Shown here: in pieces, positions 7,938 through 23,406 of the stretch
Position numbering within the stretch: the stretch's first letter is position 1
How the letters are laid out: each line of letters opens with the position of its first letter
From: a virus
Lineage: Duplodnaviria > Caudoviricetes
DNA: 24,260 nt
Direction: 5' to 3' (one strand)
IMG/VR virus record: IMGVR_UViG_3300033076_000166
Span: 1 to 24,260 of that record
Notes under the pieces: generated by a model
Database searches by the model: none
What the model was told of the DNA's origin: nothing
What the model saw: only the letters and a program-made list of their open reading frames with translations
Program-made: the position numbers and the translations under genes

Positions 7938-8192
7938 TCAACACTTCCATGCCCTTAAACTTTTGTTAATACGGCTGTTCGGGTCTTTGGCTGTCTTGGA
8001 GCTAGTCAGCTTCTTTTTCATTCCTTCCATACGGGCACAGAATGACTTTTTCCGCGGACCGCCTTCCGGCTGTGGCGCTTTCAAACCGGGCTTACCGGGA
8101 TTCGCTTTGTTGTACGAAGCCCTACCCTTGGCGTTCAATCCGCCTGCAGGGTTTTTGCCTTCTTTGCGTTGCCACGCCGGGGTCTTAGCCAT
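7938..8192 (-). CDS. Small basic phage protein (DUF6321-like)
   Basis: 84 aa; GGLNAKGRASYN, RKKSFCARM and SRINKSLRAWKC motifs. Family name recalled, not verified. Confidence 0.7.
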   Translation of the reverse strand: MAKTPAWQRKEGKNPAGGLNAKGRASYNKANPGKPGLKAPQPEGGPRKKSFCARMEGMKKKLTSSKTAKDPNSRINKSLRAWKC

Positions 8193-9075: not shown

Positions 9076-9990
9076 TTAACCGCCCGACGAGCCGTACATG
9101 CCCAGCGGATCAGACCAGCCGAACGAGTAACGCTCACGAGCTTTGTAACGCACGTTGCCGGTGTCGAAGTCACCATCCATCTTGGTGTCCAGAGCCACAC
9201 GCTCAAAGTGCTTCATGCCGTTAGGAACATCGGTGGTCAGGAACCACGCGTTCGGGTCGGTCAGCCAGTGGTTAATTGCGTAACCTTCCGGGATCGAACC
9301 GTTGTTCTTCAGGGCGTTGATGTCGTTGTCGTTGGTGCCGACACGCAGGCTGGTTTCCAGCAGACGAGTTGCAACGAATTGCAGGCTCGGCGGGATAATC
9401 AGCTTACGGGGACGGGCGGCGATCAGCAGGCCACGTTCGTCGGTCCAAGCAGCGATTTGAATGACTGCGTTTTCCAGCGAGGTTTCATTCAGATCGACAG
9501 GAGTCGAAGGAATGTTGCTGTTGACGCCGCCAGAGATCAGGGGGTGCGAAGCCGAGAACAGAGGCACGCCGTCGCCGCCGTAGTACTGTGCGGAGTTGGT
9601 GAAGCCGTTGTTCAGGACGGAAGCCGCCTTGACCTGTTTGGTGTAGGCCATTGAACGAGCCAGAGCCTTGGTATAACGAGCCGACAGGCTGTCATACAGG
9701 TTATCTTCGATCGCTTCTTCAGTGATCGAGAAGCCTTGGGCGATGGTCTCGTGGTTGTATCGAGCAGTCCATGCTTCCTGACCGTTGTCATACTCGATCG
9801 CTTGACCTTCATTCTTAACCGGAGCTGCGCTGAAGCCAGACAGCTTGGTTTCTTCTTCGAACGAACGCTCGGAAGTCTCGGTTTCGTAGATTTCCTTGTG
9901 CTCTTCGCCGTAGCGTGCATATTCCAGACCAAACAGGGCGTTCAGGCCGGGCAGCAGCTCTTTCAGTAGTTGTGCGCGTGAAATAGCCAT
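9076..9990 (-). CDS. Major capsid protein
   Basis: 304 aa, MAISRAQLLKELLPGLNALFG...YKARERYSFGWSDPLG. Size, position after scaffold and decoration genes, strongly biased codon usage, AAGGAG RBS and a downstream terminator all fit an HK97-fold capsid protein. Confidence 0.9.
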   Translation of the reverse strand: MAISRAQLLKELLPGLNALFGLEYARYGEEHKEIYETETSERSFEEETKLSGFSAAPVKNEGQAIEYDNGQEAWTARYNHETIAQGFSITEEAIEDNLYDSLSARYTKALARSMAYTKQVKAASVLNNGFTNSAQYYGGDGVPLFSASHPLISGGVNSNIPSTPVDLNETSLENAVIQIAAWTDERGLLIAARPRKLIIPPSLQFVATRLLETSLRVGTNDNDINALKNNGSIPEGYAINHWLTDPNAWFLTTDVPNGMKHFERVALDTKMDGDFDTGNVRYKARERYSFGWSDPLGMYGSSGG

Positions 9991-12466: not shown

Positions 12467-12662
12467 CTTCTTCCTCATCTTTCTGTTGTGCTTCTACAAG
12501 GTCTAACAAGTGGCGCTCTGCGAGGGCAAGACCTTGAATAACCCCACAGAGTTTTTGGTAAGCAGCGAAGTCGCCACAGACGCCACCAGCCATGTCGTCT
12601 GTGTACTCGTTCATGTCTTTACGAATTTTGGCGCGGAGAACGTCCGCGAAGTTATCGCTCAT
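12381..12662 (-). CDS. Small hypothetical protein downstream of the portal
   Basis: Start overlaps the portal stop (ATGA); helical core DFAAYQKLCGVIQGLALAE. The C-terminal part overlaps the groES-like gene. Confidence 0.7.
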   Translation of the reverse strand: MSDNFADVLRAKIRKDMNEYTDDMAGGVCGDFAAYQKLCGVIQGLALAERHLLDLVEAQQKDEEEDERATFASGDSDAGTNSTNRKSRRTSPY

Positions 12663-15148
12663 TTCTTGGGTTTCTCCTTAACTTTTATTGTCTGGCGCAC
12701 ATTCTGGATGTGCTGAACTGCCGCTTGCTTGCGTTGCAAGTCAAGTTTTTCCTTCTCGCGTGAGAGGTCTATGCCCATACGCATACCTTCCCGCTGTTCT
12801 TGCGCTTGAAGCTTTTGTTGCTCAAGCTGAATATCTGCCGCTACTTTGGCTTTCTCAAGCTCCAGCTTGTCTGCCTGTGCGGCAGCGTCTGCCGCAAGCT
12901 TCTTCTCTTTCAGTGAAACTTCTGCTTGTTTCAACTGAAGTTCTTGCTGCTGCAACTGGAACATCGGGTCTTGCTGAACTTGCTGCGCTTGCTGTTGTGC
13001 CGCACGCGCTTGGCTCTGGATCAACACTTGTTGTGCAGCCTGTGCCATCATGCCCGACAGGGCAGTCTCAATTTCTGGCGGTAGCTTCTCGTCTTCTGGT
13101 GGCAGCGGCATACCCAACTGCTGTTCGATCTTGGCGCGATATGCGTAAGCAACGTGTTCTGCTACGTGTGCAGACAACGCTGCCATGATCTGCGATGCTT
13201 TGGGGCTTTGGCCGACCAGTTGTTGAATCAGCGGGTCTTGGGCTGCTGCCATGTGCACTTGGATATGCGCTTCGTGATCTTGGTAGAAGAACGCTTTGGC
13301 TGGCTCGTTGCGCAGCAAATCCATGTTCTCCGTCACCGGGTCCTTCGGCTTCATGTCGTCTTCCAACGGCACGAGCTTCTCGGCATTCTTGATGCCCAAG
13401 ACGTTCAACATCGATCGATGGAGTTCCGGCAGGTTGTAGCTGTCCGGTGCCATCTGTGCCATCTGAATGACAGCTTGGTACTGCACCCCGCGCTGCGACA
13501 TGGTGGCCGCATTCGGATCAGACACAGGAATCAGATCAACCTTGTCGTAGTCCTCGCGCTTGGCTTTCTTGTTACCGTACTCCGGGTTGTATTCGTAGTC
13601 CGGCTCTGTGTAGTCGCGGATCAGCTCTTTCAATAACTTGAACTCGCGCTTCAAGGTGTAGTGCAGACGGGCTTGTACTGCCGTCATGACTTTCAACTGA
13701 CGCTCTAAGATAGCCAGCGTCGTACCAACAGGGCTGTTGGCCGACATGTCGGATACTTTCATATCCGCAGTCGCTGCAAAGCGACGACCTTCATCCACGA
13801 TCGTCGTCAACAGGTTATACAGTGTGGCCGACGGCTCTTTATACGGCAGCGGCAGGATCGAATCTCTGATGTTGCCCGAGGCTACATCCACATCTCGCCA
13901 TTCTCCCGGTGCAATGGGAGTGTCGTCACCCTTGATTCGCAGACCACGCGACTTGAGACCGCCCGGCAAGTTAGAAAGCGTACCGGCATCGACCAGTTGT
14001 CGCATGAGCGACGTAGCATTCTTGGCGAAGCCTCCGATAAGATGGAAGAGCCCGAACCCATAAGCCCCGAAGCCGGGAATGTACTGGTAATGCACAAAAT
14101 GCAAACGCTTAAGCTTAAGCGGGTCATCTTCTCTCCAGTTGCGACGTACTGCCAGAACAGTGTTGGTACCTTTTAACATCGTCACAACGTACGGCAACGC
14201 GATCCCAGTCTGCTCACCGTCATCGTCTTTGTCAGCGAACGGGTCTTCTGCGATGTGCAGATCAACGTGGCACTCATACAGGGTGTAGCGATCGTCACTC
14301 AGATCATTAAAGCCAGTTTCCTTATCCTTGGCTTTCTGAATGTCGGTAATGGTTTTGGTAGGATCGGGGAGGTCGATCTCGCGGTAGAAGCCGCCTTGTT
14401 GCAGCTTCATGATGTCGTTGTCGGTTTTGCGCATCTCGTGCGTCAACCGATGGCATGTGTCCAAATCTGTCGTGCCGTACGGCAGAATTACGTCTTCTGC
14501 TGGCACAAACATCGCCACTTGGCGTCCCAAATTGGGATCAAAATACACTTTCTTGAACGCCGAACCTGTTGCTGGCAGGCTCCAGAGCATCCTTTCATGC
14601 TCCGGGCGGTACTCTGACATGACTTCTGTCAGCTCAAAATTCATATCTTCTTCGACTCGCGCTGCTGCTTCGCGCACTTGTGGGGTTTCTTTCCCGATGA
14701 TTTTGGTTCTCACCGGCCCCTGCGCGGGGAATGTTTCTGTGATCGTCTCAGATTGAAAGCGGACAACTGCTTCGGTCAGCATCGGGTGGAACACACCACA
14801 CGCACCATTCCAAGGTTCTGTTCGCTCTTCAATCTGCAAGCCCAAAAGCTTCAGCCCGTTGACGTACGCTTTTTCCCAATCCTTGCGTGAGTTCTTGTCG
14901 TTCTCAATGTTATCGGCAAGATCGGCTGCGATCGACGTCAAGACGCCTTCTGACAAAGTTTCTGCCAAGTTCTCATTGAAGTCATTTTCCGCTTCAACCT
15001 GACGTAGCTCAAGCTCAAAACCGGGACCGGCTATGTTGACTTCTTCCGGGTCAACGACCTCAATTTCGATCGGTTCGTCTGCGGTGTTTAATGCTTCTAT
15101 ACCGCTTGGCACGTTGGGATACAACGCTTTGTCGATGTTGGTTGCCAT
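12659..15148 (-). CDS. Portal protein (long podovirus type with Gln-rich C-terminal coiled coil)
   Basis: ~829 aa following terminase; HPMLTEAVVRFQ, GSAFKKVYFD and RQLVDAGTLSNLPGG motifs. The ATG at 15148 overlaps the upstream stop (TGATG); a GTG at 15151 is the alternative start. Confidence 0.85.
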   Translation of the reverse strand: MATNIDKALYPNVPSGIEALNTADEPIEIEVVDPEEVNIAGPGFELELRQVEAENDFNENLAETLSEGVLTSIAADLADNIENDKNSRKDWEKAYVNGLKLLGLQIEERTEPWNGACGVFHPMLTEAVVRFQSETITETFPAQGPVRTKIIGKETPQVREAAARVEEDMNFELTEVMSEYRPEHERMLWSLPATGSAFKKVYFDPNLGRQVAMFVPAEDVILPYGTTDLDTCHRLTHEMRKTDNDIMKLQQGGFYREIDLPDPTKTITDIQKAKDKETGFNDLSDDRYTLYECHVDLHIAEDPFADKDDDGEQTGIALPYVVTMLKGTNTVLAVRRNWREDDPLKLKRLHFVHYQYIPGFGAYGFGLFHLIGGFAKNATSLMRQLVDAGTLSNLPGGLKSRGLRIKGDDTPIAPGEWRDVDVASGNIRDSILPLPYKEPSATLYNLLTTIVDEGRRFAATADMKVSDMSANSPVGTTLAILERQLKVMTAVQARLHYTLKREFKLLKELIRDYTEPDYEYNPEYGNKKAKREDYDKVDLIPVSDPNAATMSQRGVQYQAVIQMAQMAPDSYNLPELHRSMLNVLGIKNAEKLVPLEDDMKPKDPVTENMDLLRNEPAKAFFYQDHEAHIQVHMAAAQDPLIQQLVGQSPKASQIMAALSAHVAEHVAYAYRAKIEQQLGMPLPPEDEKLPPEIETALSGMMAQAAQQVLIQSQARAAQQQAQQVQQDPMFQLQQQELQLKQAEVSLKEKKLAADAAAQADKLELEKAKVAADIQLEQQKLQAQEQREGMRMGIDLSREKEKLDLQRKQAAVQHIQNVRQTIKVKEKPKK

Positions 15149-15831
15149 CACGTAATCCTTTTTGGAGATGTACCCTCTGCAATTGAGAGCGCTTCTTCTG
15201 TGTCATCAGGCAGCGTTGGCAACGACAGCCGCAGCCGCAACTTATTTAGGGTGTATCTGCGCTTAACGTATTTAAGCGAATCGGTATTAAAATCCATCTC
15301 TACGTTTTCAGGCAACGCATCAGGCATGCCTGTGTCTTGTATGTCTTCCCACGTCATGTAGGTGTCGCCGTATTCAACCATTTTCTCGTGACTAAACACC
15401 GGAGCCACGCGCAAAAGCAGCGGTACATCTTGTCCGGCAACGGCTTTTAACTCTTCGTAAGCGTGCTCAACTAATCTTCGTTCGGCTTCTACCGGGTCGT
15501 CGCCTTCAACACCAAAACACACTACTTTGTGGCTAAAACGAACGATGTCTTTGGCTTCGTCATAACTTCCAGCAAACTTTTCTTTCGGAACGTCAGCCAC
15601 ACTAAACCCGTACAGCGCTGGCAAATCAGCCATCCTTGCTTCCATATACGCCATCGGCGCTACGTCAGATACTTTGAAAGCCCCGCGCATCCATGTAGCC
15701 AACCCTGCGGCTGTGGCCGGTACTTCGGGAGCTGCACTTAAAATCTCTGGTGCTACCTCTTCTGCCAGCGCTGGCAACATGATGACTGCCGCGCTTGCGG
15801 CAAGCGACTGCAAAAATCCGCGTCTGTTCAT
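15148..15831 (-). CDS. Hypothetical protein with twin-arginine (Tat) signal peptide, inserted between terminase and portal
   Basis: N-terminus MNRRGFLQSLAASAAVIMLPALA-EE has an RRxFL motif, a hydrophobic region and an A-L-A signal peptidase site. Its translation start region is AAAGGAGAAGCAAATG. Confidence 0.8.
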   Translation of the reverse strand: MNRRGFLQSLAASAAVIMLPALAEEVAPEILSAAPEVPATAAGLATWMRGAFKVSDVAPMAYMEARMADLPALYGFSVADVPKEKFAGSYDEAKDIVRFSHKVVCFGVEGDDPVEAERRLVEHAYEELKAVAGQDVPLLLRVAPVFSHEKMVEYGDTYMTWEDIQDTGMPDALPENVEMDFNTDSLKYVKRRYTLNKLRLRLSLPTLPDDTEEALSIAEGTSPKRIT

Positions 15832-15843
15832 TTGCTTCTCCTT

Positions 15844-17370
15844 TTAGTAGTACGCCGCCCTGCGTGGGGCGAAGTATCTGTCGTCTTTTTCGTCTGAGTC
15901 GAGCGCAATGAACCCTCCTTGCCTAAAGCGCAAGAGCGCTTGGGAGGTCGTATCCACGTAGTCGTCGTGCTCGCCAACCGGGAATGCCGCCAGTTCTTCG
16001 ATCACTTCTCTGGCCCACCGGGTGTCCGGTGCCCAGACTTTACCAGATGTAAACAGGTCCGCAATAGCGTTAACGCGGACGATTTTGTCGTTGCCTCGGC
16101 TGGGGGAGAATTCTTGGACGGGGATACCCATTGCCCGAAGTTCTTGAATAAGCGGGGCACCAGCTGCCTTTTTCTCCACAATGAATGCATCGGGCTCCCA
16201 CTCCTTGTAGTGACGCAGTGCAGTTTGTTTTAATTCTGGAAACGCCATCCGGTCTTTGAACGCGTCGAGCAATATGACTTGCGGCTGGTCGTGCTCTTCC
16301 TCGTTGTAGAAGACGCCCCACGTGGTGCATGCCGAATAGTCGGCGGTGGTTTTGGCTTCGAACGCCGTATCCCAGCTCTGGATCACATACTCACACTGCG
16401 GCGGACTCTCATGCTCCCAGATGCGCCAGTCCTTCCTTGCCACGATCGCCGCGGACTCGGAAGTGGGGTTCTGCATGTACTGGGCGTTCCAATACCGAGG
16501 GTCCATCCCGCTTTTCTTGGCCTTCAGCTGATCCAACGGCCACTGCTCCGGCCAGAGCGACTTCTCGTTTTCCGTGTCTTCGTTCAGGATGGCCGGGAGT
16601 TCTACAATCTCCCACGGCTCCGTGTCGGGGTTTTTGGTCTGGTAGTCTATTAAACGACCGGTCAGGTCAAGCAACGACCACCGAGTCATGATGACGATTA
16701 TCGCCCCGTTGGGCATGAGGCGCTGCAGCGGGCCTGTTTGGAACCATGTCCATGCAGTATCGAAGGCAAGTCGAGAATTTGAGCGTACGTCCTGCTCAGA
16801 GTGAGGGTCATCAATAACGAAAAGATCAGCACCGCGACCGGCCAGAGCACCGCCGACACCTGCCGCATAGTACTGTCCACCGACGTCGGTAGACCACTTA
16901 CCCGAGGCTTTCTGGTCCTGAGACAGGTTGGTGTTTGGGAATAACTCACGATATTCTTCGCTATCTATTAAGTTTTTGACACGACGTCCAAAGTCTTCGG
17001 ACAGGCTCGCAGTGTGCGTGCCCATGATGATCTTCTTATCCGGGAAGTGCCCCATGAAGTACGCTGGGAACAGGTAGCTCGAAAACTCCGACTTACCCAT
17101 ACGCGGTGCAATATTGATAATTACCCGCTTCTTCTTCCCGGCGATGACGTCCTCGAATATCTTGGCAAGCTTCCGATGGTGCGGTCCGATCTTGAATCCC
17201 GGATACACGTGGGTTGCAAACCCCAGCATGGACTTTCGCCCGATCAGCTTGCTGGCACGGGCAGCGCGTTCTTCCAAGTCCCGCAGCAGCTCGGCCTTTT
17301 CGACGGCAGACAAGTGCGGAAGCACCTTCTGCAACGCCGCCATTTCTTCAGGACTCAGGATCGCTTTCAT
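15844..17370 (-). CDS. terL: Terminase large subunit
   Basis: 508 aa; Walker A APRMGKS, Walker B LFVIDD, coupling motif IMTRW, nuclease acidic motifs SWDTA, DYSA and HDDYVD. Confidence 0.95.
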   Translation of the reverse strand: MKAILSPEEMAALQKVLPHLSAVEKAELLRDLEERAARASKLIGRKSMLGFATHVYPGFKIGPHHRKLAKIFEDVIAGKKKRVIINIAPRMGKSEFSSYLFPAYFMGHFPDKKIIMGTHTASLSEDFGRRVKNLIDSEEYRELFPNTNLSQDQKASGKWSTDVGGQYYAAGVGGALAGRGADLFVIDDPHSEQDVRSNSRLAFDTAWTWFQTGPLQRLMPNGAIIVIMTRWSLLDLTGRLIDYQTKNPDTEPWEIVELPAILNEDTENEKSLWPEQWPLDQLKAKKSGMDPRYWNAQYMQNPTSESAAIVARKDWRIWEHESPPQCEYVIQSWDTAFEAKTTADYSACTTWGVFYNEEEHDQPQVILLDAFKDRMAFPELKQTALRHYKEWEPDAFIVEKKAAGAPLIQELRAMGIPVQEFSPSRGNDKIVRVNAIADLFTSGKVWAPDTRWAREVIEELAAFPVGEHDDYVDTTSQALLRFRQGGFIALDSDEKDDRYFAPRRAAYY

Positions 17371-17956
17371 GCGCCTCCTGCTCTGTCAAATCTTTTACAT
17401 CGACATCTTGGACTTCAGTAATCTCCACGATCTTCGCCATTTTGCTGAGCTTTTCCTTGATCCGGGCTTCCAGTTCAGCGTCTGACAGGTCGGTCTTCTT
17501 GACCTCAATCTTCTCCGTGAAGAGCCCCACTTCCGTCACCTTGCCCAAAAGGGCAAGTGCTTTTAGCCGCACAGACGCGGTGGGGTGGTTGGTCTCTTCC
17601 AGTATTTTTGCCACGGCGTAGCCGCGCAACTCCTTGGCGCGTTCAATGAATTCCCAGTCATAGGCGGATAGCATCCCTACAAGATGTTGGACAGCGGCTG
17701 GGGTTTTGACTTGGGCTACGGCGGTGTGGGCTACTTCATTGGGCTGGCCGCTGATTAAAGCGGTGAAAGCTTGGCGGGAGTGTTGGGCTTCAATATCTGT
17801 GATGGCTTCTTCGCCCACAGCACCCAGTTCCTTCAACCAATCTGTTGTTGCTACTTTAGCATCCACTGCGTCAGCGGGATGGGTTTTTTCAAGCGGCACG
17901 AACTCCGCGGAGTCGGGCTCCACAATGGGTTCGAAGTCGATAAGATGATCTAGCAT
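17348..17956 (-). CDS. Putative terminase small subunit
   Basis: 202 aa immediately upstream of and overlapping terL; helical RLKALALLGK motif and a LSDAELEARIKEKL C-terminal helix. Assignment mainly from position. Confidence 0.6.
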   Translation of the reverse strand: MLDHLIDFEPIVEPDSAEFVPLEKTHPADAVDAKVATTDWLKELGAVGEEAITDIEAQHSRQAFTALISGQPNEVAHTAVAQVKTPAAVQHLVGMLSAYDWEFIERAKELRGYAVAKILEETNHPTASVRLKALALLGKVTEVGLFTEKIEVKKTDLSDAELEARIKEKLSKMAKIVEITEVQDVDVKDLTEQEAHESDPES

Positions 17957-17966
17957 GCGATGGTCC

Positions 17967-17995
17967 TTGCAACCACGTTCGGCGCAGTGTATAGT
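17967..17995 (+). promoter_or_regulatory. Sigma70-type promoter driving the candidate sRNA
   Basis: -35 TTGCAA (17967-17972), exactly 17-bp spacer, -10 TATAGT (17990-17995). Points away from the putative terS gene and overlaps its RBS. Confidence 0.7.
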
Positions 17996-18001
17996 TCAAT
18001 C

Positions 18002-18100
18002 GGCAAGTGTGCAAGCATTGCGTGCCATTTGCTTCTCCTTCGTGGCACTTTCTCTCGCTTAGTGACCACTTTTCCCCCGGACATGTCTGGGGGTCTTTTT
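18002..18100 (+). ncRNA. Candidate trans-acting antisense sRNA with an anti-Shine-Dalgarno/anti-start-codon loop
   Basis: Bounded by a promoter and a terminator, with no credible plus-strand ORF. Hairpin 1 (18003-18021) has a GCAA tetraloop. Hairpin 2, GTGCCA(18022-18027)/TGGCAC(18043-18048), displays CATTTGCTTCTCCTT (18026-18040), the exact complement of four gene starts. Confidence 0.7.
18074..18100 (+). terminator. Intrinsic terminator of the candidate sRNA
   Basis: CCCCCGGA-CATG-TCTGGGGG stem (one G-U pair) followed by TCTTTTT. Confidence 0.7.
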
Positions 18101-18185
18101 CTGTACCGAGCATAAGCGGAAGCATCGACGGCTAATCTACCCCGTCTGAGGCCAGCGTCGGCCAAGAAACAGAACCGCGCAGGAG

Positions 18186-18209
18186 AGCCCCTTCGGGGGC
18201 TTTTTTGTT
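18186..18209 (+). terminator. Second intrinsic terminator
   Basis: AGCCCC-TTCG-GGGGCT hairpin (C-UUCG-G tetraloop) followed by TTTTTGTT. Confidence 0.8.
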
Positions 18210-18519
18210 ACTACATTTGTCAAAGGTTTGACAAGTATATTTATAATTTTTGCAAAATCTTGGGGGTGGGGGTTTGGTTTTGTGGAATTGTCAAAGTGAT
18301 AAATAGCTGCGGAGTGTGGTTGGGGAATAGTGTTCGTGTCGCAGCCCCTCCCCTCATCAAATTTTGGGGGATGGGGGGACGGTGGGGTTGTCAGATTGGC
18401 ATTTTTTAGCCCAAAACTAGGCAAAATCACGCTGGTTTTGCCTGACCAAATGCCTCACTTGCGACAATGGTGTCAGCCAATGGCAATTCCGCCACGGCAT
18501 CTACATGAAAGGACTGACC

Positions 18520-18900
18520 ATGAACACCCAAACTCAAGTCAACAAGCTTGTCGCCCGTTACCTTGACCAGCAAGACAACCTGTTAATCGAGATGCACGCC
18601 CTCGGATTAGATACCGCAGACCTTCAGCGCCCCTATGTCATCAAGGCAGTGTGCGCGGCACTGACAGCAGGCGAAGGATGGAACGAATCCGCGCAAGGCA
18701 AGGTCATGCTCGACACCAAACACGAGCGGTATGAGTTCCTGAAAACCCGAGTGCGCGACGTTATGAACGCGCTGAAGGGCGAAACCCGGACGAGCGCAAA
18801 CAGTAAGCACGAACCGGTCGATCCAGTGGAAAAGCTTTTGAAGCAATTCGACAAAATGTCAGCCGCAGAGAAGCGTCGCTTCCTGAAGGCCATCGCATGA
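18520..18900 (+). CDS. Hypothetical early protein
   Basis: Likely start is the ATG at 18520 after GAAAGGA; 126 aa; followed by a hairpin plus T tract. Confidence 0.75.
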   Translation: MNTQTQVNKLVARYLDQQDNLLIEMHALGLDTADLQRPYVIKAVCAALTAGEGWNESAQGKVMLDTKHERYEFLKTRVRDVMNALKGETRTSANSKHEPVDPVEKLLKQFDKMSAAEKRRFLKAIA

Positions 18901-18902
18901 AT

Positions 18903-18925
18903 CGGGTCAGCGTGACCCGTTTTTT
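18903..18925 (+). repeat. 17-bp palindrome CGGGTCA-N3-TGACCCG, copy 1 (with T tract, terminator-like)
   Basis: CGGGTCAGCGTGACCCG at 18903-18919 followed by TTTTTT. Confidence 0.85.
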
Positions 18926-19000
18926 CCGGGCGGCGACAAACAGAGGGGTTGCCGCTGTTTCATTCCTTGTCTAACCAAACCCAAACCGAAAGGACTCACC

Positions 19001-19150
19001 ATGCACAAGCTCTTAACCGCATTTCGCGCAAACCCAACCGATGCAAACCGCGCCAAGCTTCAGAACTACCTGAATAAGCACATGATGGCTGTGTGCCTTG
19101 CCACGCCTGAAGAACAGGCATTCCTGAAATCCAACGGCTTCAAACTCTGA
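19001..19150 (+). CDS. Small hypothetical protein (49 aa), missing from the ORF track
   Basis: GAAAGGA RBS; MHKLLTAFRANPTDANRAKLQNYLNKHMMAVCLATPEEQAFLKSNGFKL. Confidence 0.7.
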   Translation: MHKLLTAFRANPTDANRAKLQNYLNKHMMAVCLATPEEQAFLKSNGFKL

Positions 19151-19160
19151 AAGGAACGCC

Positions 19161-19274
19161 ATGAATTGCCGCAAATACTACCGACGCTACCTGATACGGG
19201 CGACACACCTTAACTTCCAAGCCGTAAGGTATTCCACATTCAAAGCCTGCTATGTCGCAGGCGTCATTCTCTGA
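19161..19274 (+). CDS. Small basic hypothetical protein (37 aa), missing from the ORF track
   Basis: GAAAGGA RBS overlapping the upstream stop; MNCRKYYRRYLIRATHLNFQAVRYSTFKACYVAGVIL. Confidence 0.6.
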   Translation: MNCRKYYRRYLIRATHLNFQAVRYSTFKACYVAGVIL

Positions 19275-19285
19275 AAGGAACCATC

Positions 19286-19504
19286 ATGCGCCTGATCTAC
19301 GAAACCACTGGCAAACCCGTCAACGTCGGGGACATAGCACACACCTTCCGAGGCGAAGCCGTCATCATCACAGGATGGCAAGAACCACGGCACGAGGGCA
19401 GCACTGGCCGCATCTACACACAGAGCACCGATGAAAGCCGCTGGCAAAACGCTTGGTACCCAAGCGTATGCGGCATGAAATGGGTAGGCGATACGAACTA
19501 CTAA
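19286..19504 (+). CDS. Small hypothetical protein (72 aa)
   Basis: GAAAGGA RBS overlapping the upstream stop; GKPVNVGD, STGRIY and YPSVCGMKW motifs. Confidence 0.75.
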   Translation: MRLIYETTGKPVNVGDIAHTFRGEAVIITGWQEPRHEGSTGRIYTQSTDESRWQNAWYPSVCGMKWVGDTNY

Positions 19505-19512
19505 CCCAAAAG

Positions 19513-19529
19513 CGGGTCAACGTGACCCG
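19513..19529. repeat. 17-bp palindrome, copy 2
   Basis: CGGGTCAACGTGACCCG, 8 bp after the stop of 19286..19504. Confidence 0.85.
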
Positions 19530-19544
19530 AAATGTACAAAATCT

Positions 19545-19870
19545 CGGGTGTCCGGGGTAGGCTGTCGTTTTATCATATTCGGACAGTTAAACGGACACCA
19601 AAAACCCGCGTAAACACTAGCGTATCCATAACAACAGTCCTATATATACATATATAAATATATTTACTTTACTAAACAAACTTGTTTATTTATATGTGGG
19701 CGACTGGCTGTCGTTTGTTTGGCGTTAGCTCTTTCCTTTTTCTGTTGGGTATAGTCTATTCTGTTTTATACTGAATTTTGGGACAACTCCGCTACAAGCG
19801 CCATTCTATGCGGTTTTTTCTGTCCTTTTTTCTGGACAAACTAGCTAAAATGTTGGACACTACCGGACGA
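19545..19870. other. AT-rich non-coding region with GGACA repeats (replication-origin-like)
   Basis: Near-pure A/T core at about 19641-19695. GGACA at 19581, 19593, 19781, 19834 and 19855; TGTCC at 19549 and 19821; imperfect inverted arms flank the core. Confidence 0.5.
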
Positions 19871-19902
19871 AGTATCCTTTTTTCACTTAACTACTAGCCA
19901 AA

Positions 19903-20712
19903 ATGAAAAGCTATTACTACCTGACTCACCTTTCAGACCGTGAACTGAACAACTTGTTAGTCAAGCGGGGCGTGCCTCGACCAGACATTCAACGTGTGCG
20001 AAGAGAGGTTGCCGCCTTAAAACTTGAGCTGCGAAAGCAGAAGGCAAGGAAGCGTGCCATCGATGACCTGTGGCGCAACGTGCTGAACCCCTTGGCAAAC
20101 GAGCTGCGCGTGGTACGGGCAATGCTTCGGTATGAAAACCGCAAGTACCCCAACCCCAAACGGCGCGAAGCTATCGACGCCTACATCAAGGTGTTATCCA
20201 AAGTGAAATTAAAACTGCGGGAGTACCGCTACTACAAAGAGCGCACGCCCAAGGAACAGGCCGAGTACATGAAAGAACTGGGCAAAACGATACCGAATGA
20301 CGGCGAGCACTGGACGGACTGGGTTCCTGAAAAGGTAAAGGCCGCGATCAGTGCCGCGTTCTTGGAAGCAAAGCAAACCGCACCAGCACACGCCAGAATC
20401 AAAGAACCTTTCCCGCGCACCATGACCAAGGCAGACAATCACCGCCTTCGTTATACCCACATCGTGACTGCCAAAAAAGAACTGCGAGAGGCGCAGCAGG
20501 AACTGACCATCATTCAGGACATGAATGGGTTTGATCCGAGCGAAGCCGAGCGGGATGCGAAAGCTAAGGTTGCCCACATACAGAACATCCTGAACTGGTT
20601 GATATGCGTAGGGGATACAGAGTTCATACCGAAAACATGGGGCGAACTGCTGACAGCAGACCTGCCGACCGTGACGCTGGAAGATGCACCGGAAGAAAAC
20701 GGGTCAGCCTGA
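19903..20712 (+). CDS. Hypothetical protein (basic, helical)
   Basis: 269 aa ORF, Arg/Lys-rich N-half, HWTDWVP motif; no recognisable family. Confidence 0.8.
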   Translation: MKSYYYLTHLSDRELNNLLVKRGVPRPDIQRVRREVAALKLELRKQKARKRAIDDLWRNVLNPLANELRVVRAMLRYENRKYPNPKRREAIDAYIKVLSKVKLKLREYRYYKERTPKEQAEYMKELGKTIPNDGEHWTDWVPEKVKAAISAAFLEAKQTAPAHARIKEPFPRTMTKADNHRLRYTHIVTAKKELREAQQELTIIQDMNGFDPSEAERDAKAKVAHIQNILNWLICVGDTEFIPKTWGELLTADLPTVTLEDAPEENGSA

Positions 20713-20716
20713 CCCG
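20700..20716. repeat. 17-bp palindrome, copy 3
   Basis: CGGGTCAGCCTGACCCG, containing the TGA stop of 19903..20712. Confidence 0.85.
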
Positions 20717-20750
20717 ATAAATCAGGCGGCAACCATGAAAGGAGAAGCAA

Positions 20751-21095
20751 ATGAAGATCGTGATGCCCGATTGGCGTGACACTTTGAAGGTAGGCGATGT
20801 GCTTATCTCACCGACGGGAAGCTGGCGCGTAGTGAGGGCGGTGTCTTACTGGAGCGAAGACAACTGGTGCGCGACACGGCGAGGGTTGCTGCAGTCCGTA
20901 ACCTTATCAATTAAGCGGTGCTCGTGGACAGGCAGGGCGTTCACATTAAAGATACGTTCCGATCTGGCACGCTGGCAAAAGCTTGAAGGCGCACGCGCCA
21001 AGTTATCAACCGAAGCAGATCGCAAACTACTGGAGGACATACGCAAATACACAACCAATCATTTCACCTGCTGCACTGTTAAACACATGATCTAA
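20751..21095 (+). CDS. Hypothetical protein
   Basis: 114 aa; start region AAAGGAGAAGCAAATG (20738-20753). Confidence 0.75.
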   Translation: MKIVMPDWRDTLKVGDVLISPTGSWRVVRAVSYWSEDNWCATRRGLLQSVTLSIKRCSWTGRAFTLKIRSDLARWQKLEGARAKLSTEADRKLLEDIRKYTTNHFTCCTVKHMI

Positions 21096-21106
21096 AGGAG
21101 AAGCAA

Positions 21107-21334
21107 ATGCCAAAAGTAATTTTTGAAAACGGAAAACCTATCCTGCGTGATGACTGGGACGAGGCAGATGTCCACGGCCAAGCTGGTGAGATGGACATCG
21201 AACTGACCGATGACGAGGCACTGGAAGTTATGCACTTGATTGCTCGCACATTCGACGCACACATAGGCGTTAACTGGGACGTTATCGGGCAAGCCATCGA
21301 AGCAGTGAAGGAGAGAGTAAATGAAAACGAGTGA
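21107..21334 (+). CDS. Small acidic hypothetical protein
   Basis: 75 aa; start region AAAGGAGAAGCAAATG (21094-21109); LTDDEALEV...FDAHIGVNWDVI motif. Confidence 0.8.
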   Translation: MPKVIFENGKPILRDDWDEADVHGQAGEMDIELTDDEALEVMHLIARTFDAHIGVNWDVIGQAIEAVKERVNENE

Positions 21335-21668
21335 GCTGACAGGCGCTGCCCTTGACTGGGCAGTGGCGGAGTGTGAAGAGGTTGGGGTGCGATGGAGTGC
21401 GCCGCACGAACAGCTATTGATTGAAGGTAAACCATATATAGTCTGGAACCCACATAAAAACTGGGCACAAGGCGGACAGATAATTGAGCGGGAAGGGCTG
21501 ACAGTGGAATATCTACATGACTCACGATGGATTGCAAAACATCCAACAGCGAAGCGGCATAGTCGCCCTATCTTTGGCGAAGGCACAACCCCACTCATCG
21601 CAGCAATGCGCTGCTATGTGGCATCGAAACTAGGTGAAGAAGTACAACTACCGGAGGAATTAAAATGA
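21321..21668 (+). CDS. Phage NinX/DUF2591-like protein
   Basis: 115 aa; ELTGAALDWAVA, WAQGGQIIERE and TPLIAAMRCYVASKLG motifs typical of this family. Confidence 0.75.
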   Translation: MKTSELTGAALDWAVAECEEVGVRWSAPHEQLLIEGKPYIVWNPHKNWAQGGQIIEREGLTVEYLHDSRWIAKHPTAKRHSRPIFGEGTTPLIAAMRCYVASKLGEEVQLPEELK

Positions 21669-21889
21669 CAATCACACTCATCAAACAAGAAACAATCCAC
21701 GCACAACTCAATGATGTTCAGTTGATCGAGGCAGCAGTGCGTATGTCAGAGCGCGGCGGAGGATTCGCAAGCTGCATAGGTAACGCATACCTACGCGCAG
21801 ACAGTGTTAACTCAGAGAAGCTATTGCGAACATTCCCTGAGTTGTTTATCAAGTTCGCACCTAGGAAAGAAGCAGACCCGTATCAATAA
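21665..21889 (+). CDS. Small hypothetical protein
   Basis: 74 aa; start overlaps the upstream stop; GGGFAS...AD..N...L...FPELF motif. Confidence 0.7.
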   Translation: MTITLIKQETIHAQLNDVQLIEAAVRMSERGGGFASCIGNAYLRADSVNSEKLLRTFPELFIKFAPRKEADPYQ

Positions 21890-21930
21890 GCAGCACAACG
21901 TAGTAACCACAACAATGAAAGGAGAAGCAA

Positions 21931-23406
21931 ATGTCTACACAATACAACGGACAGGAACGCTTGGAGTGGATGGTATCTCTCACTAGCGTACTGCGTGAGC
22001 GTGCAGCTATTGGCGATTTTGTTAATCGTTATGGTTGGAATGACTTACCCGACAGCTACAAAAAGATATACCCGGAGAATCAGGCACAACACTTAATCAT
22101 GCGTAGCTGGCGGCATGCACACATGCGCAAGTTCAAAACCATGCACGCTGTCATACGTGACGCAGTGATGTTAGCCCCGCCTCGTGACTGGCATCTATTA
22201 GTTCTTGAGTGGCCTCACAAAGCAGAGACAGACCCGTCACGCATAGCCTACACACGCGACGATAAGGCAGGCATGGCTGACAAGCAGACCGTGACCAGCG
22301 TAGGTAGGTATCTCACTCGGCATTTCCCTACGCTTGCTGACCATCAGATACGTGACCTAGCTGCACAATACATAGCTGTTAACGATACGTTCAAGATCGT
22401 ACGCACAACGGAACAGATTGTTGACTACCTACACCGTGGTCCGAACTCGTGCATGCTGTGGAACGATGGCGATGAAGATTGGGACGGTGATCCGTACGAG
22501 CATCCGTACGTAGCCTACGCGCCTGAGCTTGGCTGGGGTCTGGCTGTGCGTATGTCAGGCAGTACTGTAAACGGCCGTGCGCTTGTCAATGACAGACAGA
22601 AATGTTTTGTGCGTACGTACAAACGCAACGATGACGGCTACTCAGGCAATGACGATGCGCTGTCCTCGTGGCTTGTAGGTCAAGGCTATGCCAAGCAGAA
22701 CGGCTGGCCTGAAGGTACTGCACTGAAGAAAGTACCACGCGGTACTCGCTGGGGTAACAAGGTGTTCTGGGCTCCATACATTGACGGTTGCCATCAGGAC
22801 ATTGAGGTATGCGGCGACGAGTTACACATCTGCGCTTCAGGCGAGTACACATGCACCAACACTGACGGGTATCCGCAAGAGAACGAGATGTGTACGTGTG
22901 AGTCATGCGACGATCGTGTGCATGAGGATGATCGCTACGTTGTCGGACGTAACGAGGACTATGCGATATGTCGTTCATGCTTCGAGGATTATGTGCGTGC
23001 GCATAGCCGTCGTGGTCATTCATGCTACTTGCACACGGATGATGTCGTTCAGGTTGGCGAGAACTACTACGACACCGAGTATCTGTCCGACAATAACATT
23101 GTCGAGACTGACCAAGGCGAGTTCATGCACATCGATGACGCAGTGTGTATTGACGATACGTGGTATGACATTGACGATTCGCGTGTAGTGCGCTGCGAAG
23201 ATACCGACGAGTATGCCATCGAGGACGAGGGTTGCTGGCAGTGCGATAACAGCGGCAACTGGTACTCAGACTACGTGACACCGGTAAAACTGTGCGACAT
23301 GCACGGCGATGTGTTGCATATTCACCCAGACTTCGAGGACGAATACGAAGCCGACCTGTCTGTTGACCTGACCGCCGACGAAACACTAACAATTGAAGGA
23401 GCTTAA
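21931..23406 (+). CDS. Large hypothetical protein with Cys-rich, highly acidic repeated C-terminal region
   Basis: 491 aa; start region AAAGGAGAAGCAAATG (21918-21933). The N-half has GPNSCM, GRALV and PYIDG motifs; the C-half has CESC, CRSC and CWQC in Asp/Glu/Tyr-rich units. Confidence 0.85.
   Translation: MSTQYNGQERLEWMVSLTSVLRERAAIGDFVNRYGWNDLPDSYKKIYPENQAQHLIMRSWRHAHMRKFKTMHAVIRDAVMLAPPRDWHLLVLEWPHKAETDPSRIAYTRDDKAGMADKQTVTSVGRYLTRHFPTLADHQIRDLAAQYIAVNDTFKIVRTTEQIVDYLHRGPNSCMLWNDGDEDWDGDPYEHPYVAYAPELGWGLAVRMSGSTVNGRALVNDRQKCFVRTYKRNDDGYSGNDDALSSWLVGQGYAKQNGWPEGTALKKVPRGTRWGNKVFWAPYIDGCHQDIEVCGDELHICASGEYTCTNTDGYPQENEMCTCESCDDRVHEDDRYVVGRNEDYAICRSCFEDYVRAHSRRGHSCYLHTDDVVQVGENYYDTEYLSDNNIVETDQGEFMHIDDAVCIDDTWYDIDDSRVVRCEDTDEYAIEDEGCWQCDNSGNWYSDYVTPVKLCDMHGDVLHIHPDFEDEYEADLSVDLTADETLTIEGA

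Follow-up and report, generated by a model that had tools for sequence, protein, structure and literature searches.

The c4 RNA of phages P1 and P7 is excised from the very operon transcript under its control, and the sites on which it acts to control ant lie in one mRNA. The sar RNA of P22 and the OOP RNA of lambda are transcribed opposite a single target, to which each is fully complementary, and in T4 two proteins, the translational repressor RegA and the endoribonuclease RegB, shut off phage early genes via their ribosome binding site (RBS) regions. To our knowledge, the phage small RNAs (sRNAs) known so far act mostly on one neighbouring gene or on host genes. In the portions of two reports that were available, the specificity of c4 is placed in a few seed bases (PMC12197685, PMC8198154), and the first of these also covers the antisense action of sar and OOP (PMC12197685, available in part). 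A shared start-site tag has been described in the cluster K mycobacteriophages, in which the SAS, an identical 13-bp sequence that includes AGGAG, lies 3-7 bp before the starts of many non-structural genes (PMC3203893, available in part). Conservation of the SAS exceeds the part that can pair with 16S rRNA, and one copy lies in reverse orientation away from gene starts; in the available sections of the same paper the reader of the tag, RNA or protein, was left open (PMC3203893), and in an extract from 2024 the role of the SAS is still called ‘ill-defined’ (PMC11373665). The literature at hand, some of it in extract, describes neither the RNA that is the subject of this report nor any other sRNA that reads a start tag.

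The DNA analysed here, called the window throughout, is the whole of IMG/VR record IMGVR_UViG_3300033076_000166 (24,260 bp, estimated to be 38% complete). A packaging and head operon of minus-strand genes runs down from 17956, the plus-strand genes begin at about 18505, and the sRNA unit falls in the divergent gap between the two (Table 1). The terS-like protein of the packaging operon gave no family match in Pfam/PHROG-type searches, and its gene was used as the anchor for locating relatives. A megablast search of positions 15000-23000 against phage records returned no match. An Rfam scan of the whole window at E<=1 gave nothing in the sRNA region, C4 included; the only match was to DUF2693-FD elsewhere, at 8119-8152 on the minus strand, and was weak (24.9 bits, the gathering score being 44.5; E 0.13).

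The 15-mer AAGGAGAAGCAAATG is present in five exact copies in 24 kb. The expected number is 0.03 and none of 100 shuffles reached five, which bears out the view, put forward in a first-pass annotation of this DNA, that the repetition is not due to chance. Four of the five copies span the Shine-Dalgarno sequence (SD) and spacer and end in the ATG of an ORF; these ORFs are 227, 114, 75 and 491 aa long. That annotation had further proposed that a 15-nt stretch within a candidate sRNA is the complement of the starts of the genes at 20751, 21107 and 21931 on the plus strand and 15831 on the minus strand, and a 15/15 match was indeed found at all four.

The proposed promoter of this RNA, TTGCAA-17-TATAGT, was located on the plus strand as described and agrees with the consensus at nine of 12 positions, and the proposed intrinsic terminator also held up, a terminator-like hairpin being followed by TCTTTTT. 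The 5' end was placed at the seventh base past the -10 box and is, like both of the promoters discussed below, a consensus prediction only; a simple promoter scan of the window found one site against 1.0 expected in shuffled sequence. The 99-nt RNA so defined folds at -37.6 kcal/mol (z = -4.4), in a form that departs from the one first drawn. A GTGCCA/TGGCAC hairpin holding the 15-mer in its loop is absent from the minimum-energy fold and from the folds of the relatives. The 15-nt complement, taken to be mostly single-stranded, is so over 7-8 nt only: UCUCCUUC is unpaired, the seed core having a mean unpaired probability of 0.89, whereas CAUUUGCU (18026-18033), the first 8 nt of the complement, is paired inside stem-loop 1 (SL1) as its 3' strand. 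Relatives (e.g. L013) have a GCAA tetraloop, which the fold of the window itself lacks. Nor is the unit free of ORFs, as had been supposed, since it holds mechanical plus-strand ORFs of 35, 51 and 42 aa and a 10-codon ORF on the minus strand.

Table 1. Coordinates of the predicted sRNA unit, its predicted targets and the neighbouring genes in the window
Feature	Coordinates	Strand	Details
sRNA promoter-like element	17967..17995	+	-35 TTGCAA 17967-17972, 17-nt spacer, -10 TATAGT 17990-17995
Predicted sRNA, ~99 nt	18002..18100	+	3' end is the terminator U-tail
Stem-loop 1 (SL1)	18002..18033	+	5' GGCAAGUG pairs with CAUUUGCU
Complement of the 15-mer start tag, CAUUUGCUUCUCCUU	18026..18040	+	Exact complement of AAGGAGAAGCAAATG
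Single-stranded seed UCUCCUUC	18034-18041	+	Between SL1 and SL2 (minimum-energy fold)
Stem-loop 2 (SL2), GUGGCACU / AGUGaCCAC	18042..18069	+	Window fold; UGGCAC belongs here
Intrinsic terminator, CCCCCGGA/UCUGGGGG hairpin then UCUUUUU	18074..18100	+	Hairpin itself 18074-18093
Candidate weak terS-operon promoter	17986..18014	-	-35 TTGCAC 18014-18009, 17 nt, -10 TACACT 17991-17986
10-codon ORF, MARNACTLAD and stop, after the minus-strand tag copy	17996..18028	-	Not conserved in relatives
terS-like gene, 202 aa, in small-terminase position	17348..17956	-	Directly upstream of the large terminase gene
Large terminase gene	15844-17370	-	Packaging/head operon
Portal gene	12659-15151	-	Packaging/head operon
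Major capsid gene	9076-9990	-	Packaging/head operon
AAGGAGAAGCAAATG copies	15829-15843(-), 18026-18040(-), 20739-20753(+), 21095-21109(+), 21919-21933(+)		Exact match
Predicted target: start of 114-aa gene 20751-21095	20739..20753	+	Seed duplex -25.3 kcal/mol
Predicted target: start of 75-aa gene 21107-21334	21095..21109	+	Seed duplex -24.0 kcal/mol
Predicted target T1: start of 491-aa gene 21931-23406	21919..21933	+	Seed duplex -24.8 kcal/mol
Predicted target: start of 227-aa gene 15148-15831	15829..15843	-	Seed duplex -24.3 kcal/mol
Weaker predicted target: start of NinX-like gene 21321-21668, GAAGGAGAGAGUAAAUG	21304..21323	+	-22.2 kcal/mol, fifth of 40 starts

A search of IMG/VR with the terS-like protein gave 313 relatives, from which 80 loci, 58-85% identical in this protein, were kept. 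At least 215 nt of upstream DNA was present in 77 of them, giving 53 distinct sequences; 47 were aligned, L006 (identical to the window), four near-duplicates and L050 being left out. The sRNA unit is kept upstream of the terS-like gene in these 47 distinct sequences, all of which carry TTG-17/18-TAnAnT on the plus strand. Their -35 boxes are TTGCAA (19), TTGAAC (14), TTGAAA (6), TTGTAA (4) and TTGCGT (4), their -10 boxes TACACT (23), TATAGT (17), TATATT (4) and TATACT (3), and 42 have a 17-nt and five an 18-nt spacer. The invariant columns of the alignment comprise two abutting -10 boxes (TAnAnT on the plus strand and TACAnT on the minus strand, sharing TA), the TTG/TTGC of two -35 boxes, the seed motif, the G's of the terminator and the T-run. 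A GC hairpin followed by a run of 5-8 T is present on the plus strand in 47/47; read on the minus strand, the hairpin has A7-8 ahead of it and no T-run behind it in any relative. With a T-run after the hairpin on one strand only, the element would be a terminator for the plus strand alone.

As RNAalifold on the MAFFT alignment recovered the terminator alone, each sequence was folded singly (39 sequences and eight long forms). SL1, a single-stranded UCUCCUU, SL2 and the terminator were found in 46 of the 47 folds, L060 having no SL2, even though the stems of SL2 and of the terminator differ widely in sequence. In the eight relatives with a 30-35-nt insertion the tip of SL1 is lengthened and its helix is not broken. 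The mean unpaired probability of the seed core is 0.74-1.0 in 42 of the 47 and 0.48-0.57 in five. When pairs of the outer SL1 and the terminator, named by the analyst, were counted on alignment A2, 87% were paired compared with 38-56% when the partner was slid. Folding also distinguishes the strands: the plus sense folds better than the antisense in every one of the 47 (mean over 39 sequences -38.1 against -29.5 kcal/mol), and G.U accounts for 103 of 521 SL1 pairs, reaching five of ten in the L073 group, where these pairs would be A.C on the opposite strand. A start codon after the motif is absent from 24 of the 47 leaders, and the other 23 open 1-31 codons in varying frames. The lack of a start codon in 24 leaders argues that the motif is not kept as a ribosome site, and the comparison of strands suggests that what is conserved is its nucleotides as plus-strand RNA. 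The earlier proposal of a separate plus-strand sRNA gene is thus supported by comparison of these sequences, with promoter, seed and terminator kept in 47/47 and the plus strand favoured in 47/47.

Both a regular expression and a covariance model placed one copy of the unit per genome in 11 of 11 genomes. The model scored 63.1 bits in the window and 49-77 bits, once each, in the 10 other genomes, most of the scored sequences being members of its own training set. Relatives that keep the tags and have lost the complementary RNA would have spoken against a link between the two; all 11 genomes keep both. More widely, about 140 IMG/VR stretches carry the pattern of -10 box, TTTGCTTCTCCT and T6. 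Outside the training set, a truncated unit, cut by the contig end and scoring 30 bits, was seen beside a 63%-identical terS-like gene on a 1.7-kb contig (L121) of a metagenome-assembled genome (MAG) titled uncultured Limnohabitans, which is a faint hint of the host or else a mis-binned phage contig. The cultured relatives DSL-LC04, 023Pt_psg01, HTVC027P and MinM2, with large terminases about 44-52% identical and other gene orders upstream of terL, gave no covariance-model match at E<=1.

On the minus strand the tag copy within the unit reads AAGGAG...ATG, has the orientation of the terS operon and precedes the terS-like ATG by 72 nt; the first-pass annotation did not mention this orientation. 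In L011, L028 and L031 the reading frame opened by the ATG that follows the motif runs without a stop into the terS-like gene, which would gain 25-31 residues; in the window a TGA at 17998-17996 ends this frame. A candidate promoter facing the terS-like gene, read from the sequence and not reported by the promoter scan, matches the consensus at seven of 12 positions only. In relatives (alignment A1) its TTGC and TACAnT are invariant or nearly so, and this TTGCAC-17-TACACT element could drive terS. Its -10 box abuts that of the sRNA promoter, the bases TA being common to both, and because two bases are shared RNA polymerase would probably serve only one promoter at a time. Synthesis of the sRNA would then be linked inversely to late transcription. 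A transcript from the candidate terS promoter would start downstream of 18002-18100, and the sRNA overlaps only the 10-codon ORF and DNA of a possible terS leader.

Several further elements were observed on the plus-strand side of the gap. A second module of about 105 nt (18101-18209, plus strand) lies between the sRNA terminator and the putative operator described below, and ends in a terminator of its own (AGCCCC-TTCG-GGGGCT, then T6). L009, L010 and L011 have this module, L008 and most relatives do not, and its inner hairpin co-varies (GGCC/GGCC and GGTC/GACC). The module may represent an additional sRNA, or the first sRNA in a version extended at its 3' end. The perfect palindrome TGTCAAAGGTTTGACA at 18218-18233 (plus strand) is preserved in relatives as TGTCnAAnnTTnGACA. 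A TTGACA -35 box makes up its right half and is followed 17 nt on by TATAAT/TATAAA in relatives and by TGCAAA in the window (approximately 18228-18256). Read by eye in this way, the palindrome is likely to be an operator over a promoter of the plus-strand genes, and the position of TGTCnAAnnTTnGACA and the promoter-like site after the terminator would place the sRNA immediately ahead of the operon in which most of its predicted targets are found. Another palindromic hairpin, GGGTCAnnnTGACCC, occurs in three copies (0.05 expected) at the ends or starts of plus-strand genes (18904-18918, 19514-19528 and 20701-20715, plus strand); it also stands before T1 in G001, G002 and G004, in the last of which it ranks with the most frequent 11-mers.

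Below the five predicted target starts of Table 1, the other 35 starts in the window pair with the seed at -20.4 kcal/mol or more weakly. With 300 shuffled seeds the fourth-best duplex energy averaged -14.5 kcal/mol, with a minimum of -19.2 kcal/mol. The gene at 21321-21668 has a Pfam match to NinX, and the 227-aa gene lies between the large terminase and portal genes; the N-terminus of its product gave a weak TAT-signal-like match (E 0.0052, below the Pfam cut-off). The T1 gene, upstream of a gene for an M28-type peptidase, has orthologues of 490-580 aa in nine other genomes, but its function is not indicated by any Pfam or PHROG family, and Atlas gives viral hypothetical clusters only. A single-protein search for relatives of T1 returned two loci only, which were left unused. 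A further predicted target, T2, lies outside this window and is a SNF2-type helicase of about 520 aa that is about 80% identical among genomes.

The relatives fall into several seed classes, and in a number of these a change in the seed is mirrored in its predicted targets. The class F seed has an extra U (complement GGAGAAAGCAA); T1 (AAGGAGAAAGCAAUG) and T2 (GGAGAAAGCAUG) both carry the matching extra A, and class F genomes hold 0-1 copies of GGAGAAGCAA. A G/A difference between G006 and L049 affects one and the same position of the seed and of the T1 site, and in class C a lengthening of the spacer by 2 nt is seen in the seed and in T1 alike, AUGCAAC being common to the two. The odd seed of G009, UUUGUUUCUCUCUC, makes 17 contiguous pairs with its T2 site, GAGAGAGAAACAGAUGG (-29.0 kcal/mol). 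In classes B and D, by a reading made by hand, the leader changes (ATG to ACA, G to A) still permit pairing with AAGCAAAUG targets, as G.U wobbles when read in the sRNA sense, and in mismatched tags nearly all of the free positions can change in the wobble-compatible direction alone. Counts of start sites matched over at least 11 pairs are block-diagonal for classes A and F: class A seeds match 10-15 starts in G001/G003 and 0-5 in G004/G005, against 6-10 in G004/G005 and 1-5 in G001/G003 for class F seeds. Mirrored variants at T1/T2 were seen across classes A, C, D, F and G. The co-variation of seed and target between phages, for which the first-pass annotation had proposed a check, is found at T1/T2 in several lineages, but not at T1 in classes E and G or at T2 in class D. 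No extended target was found in class E (G010, 12.9 kb), no extended seed match at T1 in class G (L080, L078) and no seed match at T2 of G006 in class D. On T1 the own seed is better than the best foreign-class seed in eight of 13 comparisons only, and foreign seeds also give many 11-nt start matches, the anti-SD core pairing with any strong SD. The co-varying lineages are few, perhaps 4-5 events, and are mutually related. Identical start tags of another kind exist in these phages. The tag GGAGAAGAAC(A)ATG marks five neighbouring genes in each of G002 and G004 and matches the seed over 9 nt only, from which it follows that identical tags do not need this sRNA. In longer form, (AAGCT)AAAGGAGAAGAAC(A)ATG, this tag lies on small genes at 53653-55020 (minus strand) of G002 and 18417-19182 (plus strand) of G004 (loci L092 and L098), the sRNA seed match not extending beyond AAGGAGAAG.

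Judged by consensus and conservation, the locus has its own promoter and terminator, a conserved fold with an accessible seed, and complementarity kept in evolution, as is expected of an sRNA gene. We consider it probable, from these sequence comparisons, that the plus-strand RNA gene at 18002-18100 is real and represents a new family of phage sRNAs. The reading of its role with the best support is that it represses translation of the tagged phage genes, the balance being tipped slightly in favour of this. In this model the sRNA would be transcribed from 18002, its single-stranded pyrimidine seed, UUGCUUCUCCUU, would pair with the SD/AUG regions of several phage genes, and pairing over SD and AUG would block ribosome loading, giving repression and not activation. 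The blocking step is modelled on sRNAs such as c4 and sar, as treated in the available part of PMC12197685. The earlier description of a master translational switch overstates the evidence: these phages carry other identical start tags unmatched by the seed, and half of the complement is paired in SL1.

The sRNA may be real with its seed serving another end, such as pairing with host SDs, activation or stabilisation of mRNA, or binding of Hfq or S1. An unpaired UCUCCUU is a generic anti-SD sequence, the many starts matched by foreign seeds and the lineages with no extended phage target would be accounted for, and we regard this as unlikely though deserving of weight; a generic anti-SD has no need of a 15/15 match at four starts or of mirroring at T1 and T2 that goes beyond the SD. 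It is improbable, in our estimation, that the element instead acts on the minus strand as a long leader of the terS operon, with AAGGAGAAGCAA as the ribosome site of a mini-ORF or a stand-by site, the hairpins as leader structure and the 18026-18040 copy as a fifth start tag. The motif does lie in the operon sense ahead of the terS-like ATG, with an ATG next to it in 23 of 47 leaders and in frame with terS in three (L011, L028, L031), to which a minus-strand reading may apply. A leader peptide or upstream ORF would be expected to keep start codon and frame, yet 24 of the 47 have no start and the frames vary. On this strand, moreover, the GC hairpin has its A-run before it and no T-run after it, the fold is worse in 47/47, the G.U pairs would turn to A.C, and visual inspection of the DNA upstream of the hairpin revealed no promoter-like site.

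The tags, the terS-side copy included, might also be operators for an RNA- or DNA-binding protein of phage or host, acting in the manner of RegA with no RNA-RNA pairing. All copies change together between lineages, as they would with a shared protein reader, and the authors of the cluster K work allow RNA or protein for the SAS (PMC3203893, in the part available). Such a protein would leave the plus-strand promoter, the terminator and the G.U-rich hairpins at the terS-side copy unexplained, and gives no account of why that copy keeps its pairing potential and not its start codon; we give this reading little credence. It is very unlikely, finally, that the five tags are simply copies of a strong, favoured ribosome site that duplication or recombination of gene starts has spread, with promoter, hairpins and terminator arising by chance. 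The existence of other identical tags in these phages and the yield of the promoter scan, no higher than in shuffled sequence, agree with such an origin, but it is disfavoured by retention of the whole unit in 47 distinct sequences and 11/11 genomes and by the roughly 140 pattern matches in IMG/VR, the relatives being far from near-identical (58-85% in the terS-like protein).

If the sRNA is a repressor of tagged genes, a broader proposal can be made. The start tags would be address labels read by a dedicated sRNA whose promoter is interlocked with, and mutually exclusive with, the late packaging promoter, and a single seed would set the translation of a replication and early gene set. Taken as one joint claim this is speculative, and we think it doubtful that all of its parts will hold. 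What is predicted here is one conserved RNA that reaches several scattered phage genes by way of a common start-site tag, a highly conserved SNF2-type helicase being among the predicted targets, and the family extends over hundreds of uncultured aquatic phage contigs while being absent from Rfam. Were this prediction true, it would amount to a simple RNA-based scheduling of phage translation and would offer a ready-made pair of seed and tag.

With c4 the predicted RNA shares the character of a small structured phage RNA whose exposed sequences pair around the RBS and block translation in trans. It differs in having its own promoter and terminator, in its position beside terS and in matching at least 4-5 dispersed genes. 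Like sar and OOP it would be a short phage antisense RNA that pairs with phage mRNA and prevents expression, but its targets are at least 2-4 kb distant and are matched over 11-17 nt. The contrast with RegA and RegB of T4 lies in the predicted reader, which here is RNA. The arrangement of the cluster K SAS is alike, and the arrangement alone: sequence, host and phage group differ, no sRNA was proposed there, and the 13-bp consensus GGGATAGGAGCCC is not the tag of the window, which is AAGGAGAAGCAAATG. In Adephagia (JF704105; L242 46670-46715, at about 58669-58714 of the record), which has 16 forward copies, the sole reverse SAS carries one mismatch and lies in a 432-bp gene-free gap, where it sits in the loop (CCUCCUAUCC, 10 nt) of a hairpin with some 19 pairs. 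Conservation of the hairpin region, whose z is -6.0 over 171 nt, extends to 131 mycobacteriophage records, and six aligned sequences show G.U pairs and compensatory changes on the plus strand. Co-variation of SAS and loop was not found in DarthP, in which the loop differs while 13 SAS copies do not, and the parallel stays a lead. By analogy, the address-label logic may nevertheless extend to the cluster K SAS, whose reverse copy sits in a hairpin loop, and if true it would supply a concrete hypothesis for a mycobacteriophage tag whose reader has been open since 2011.
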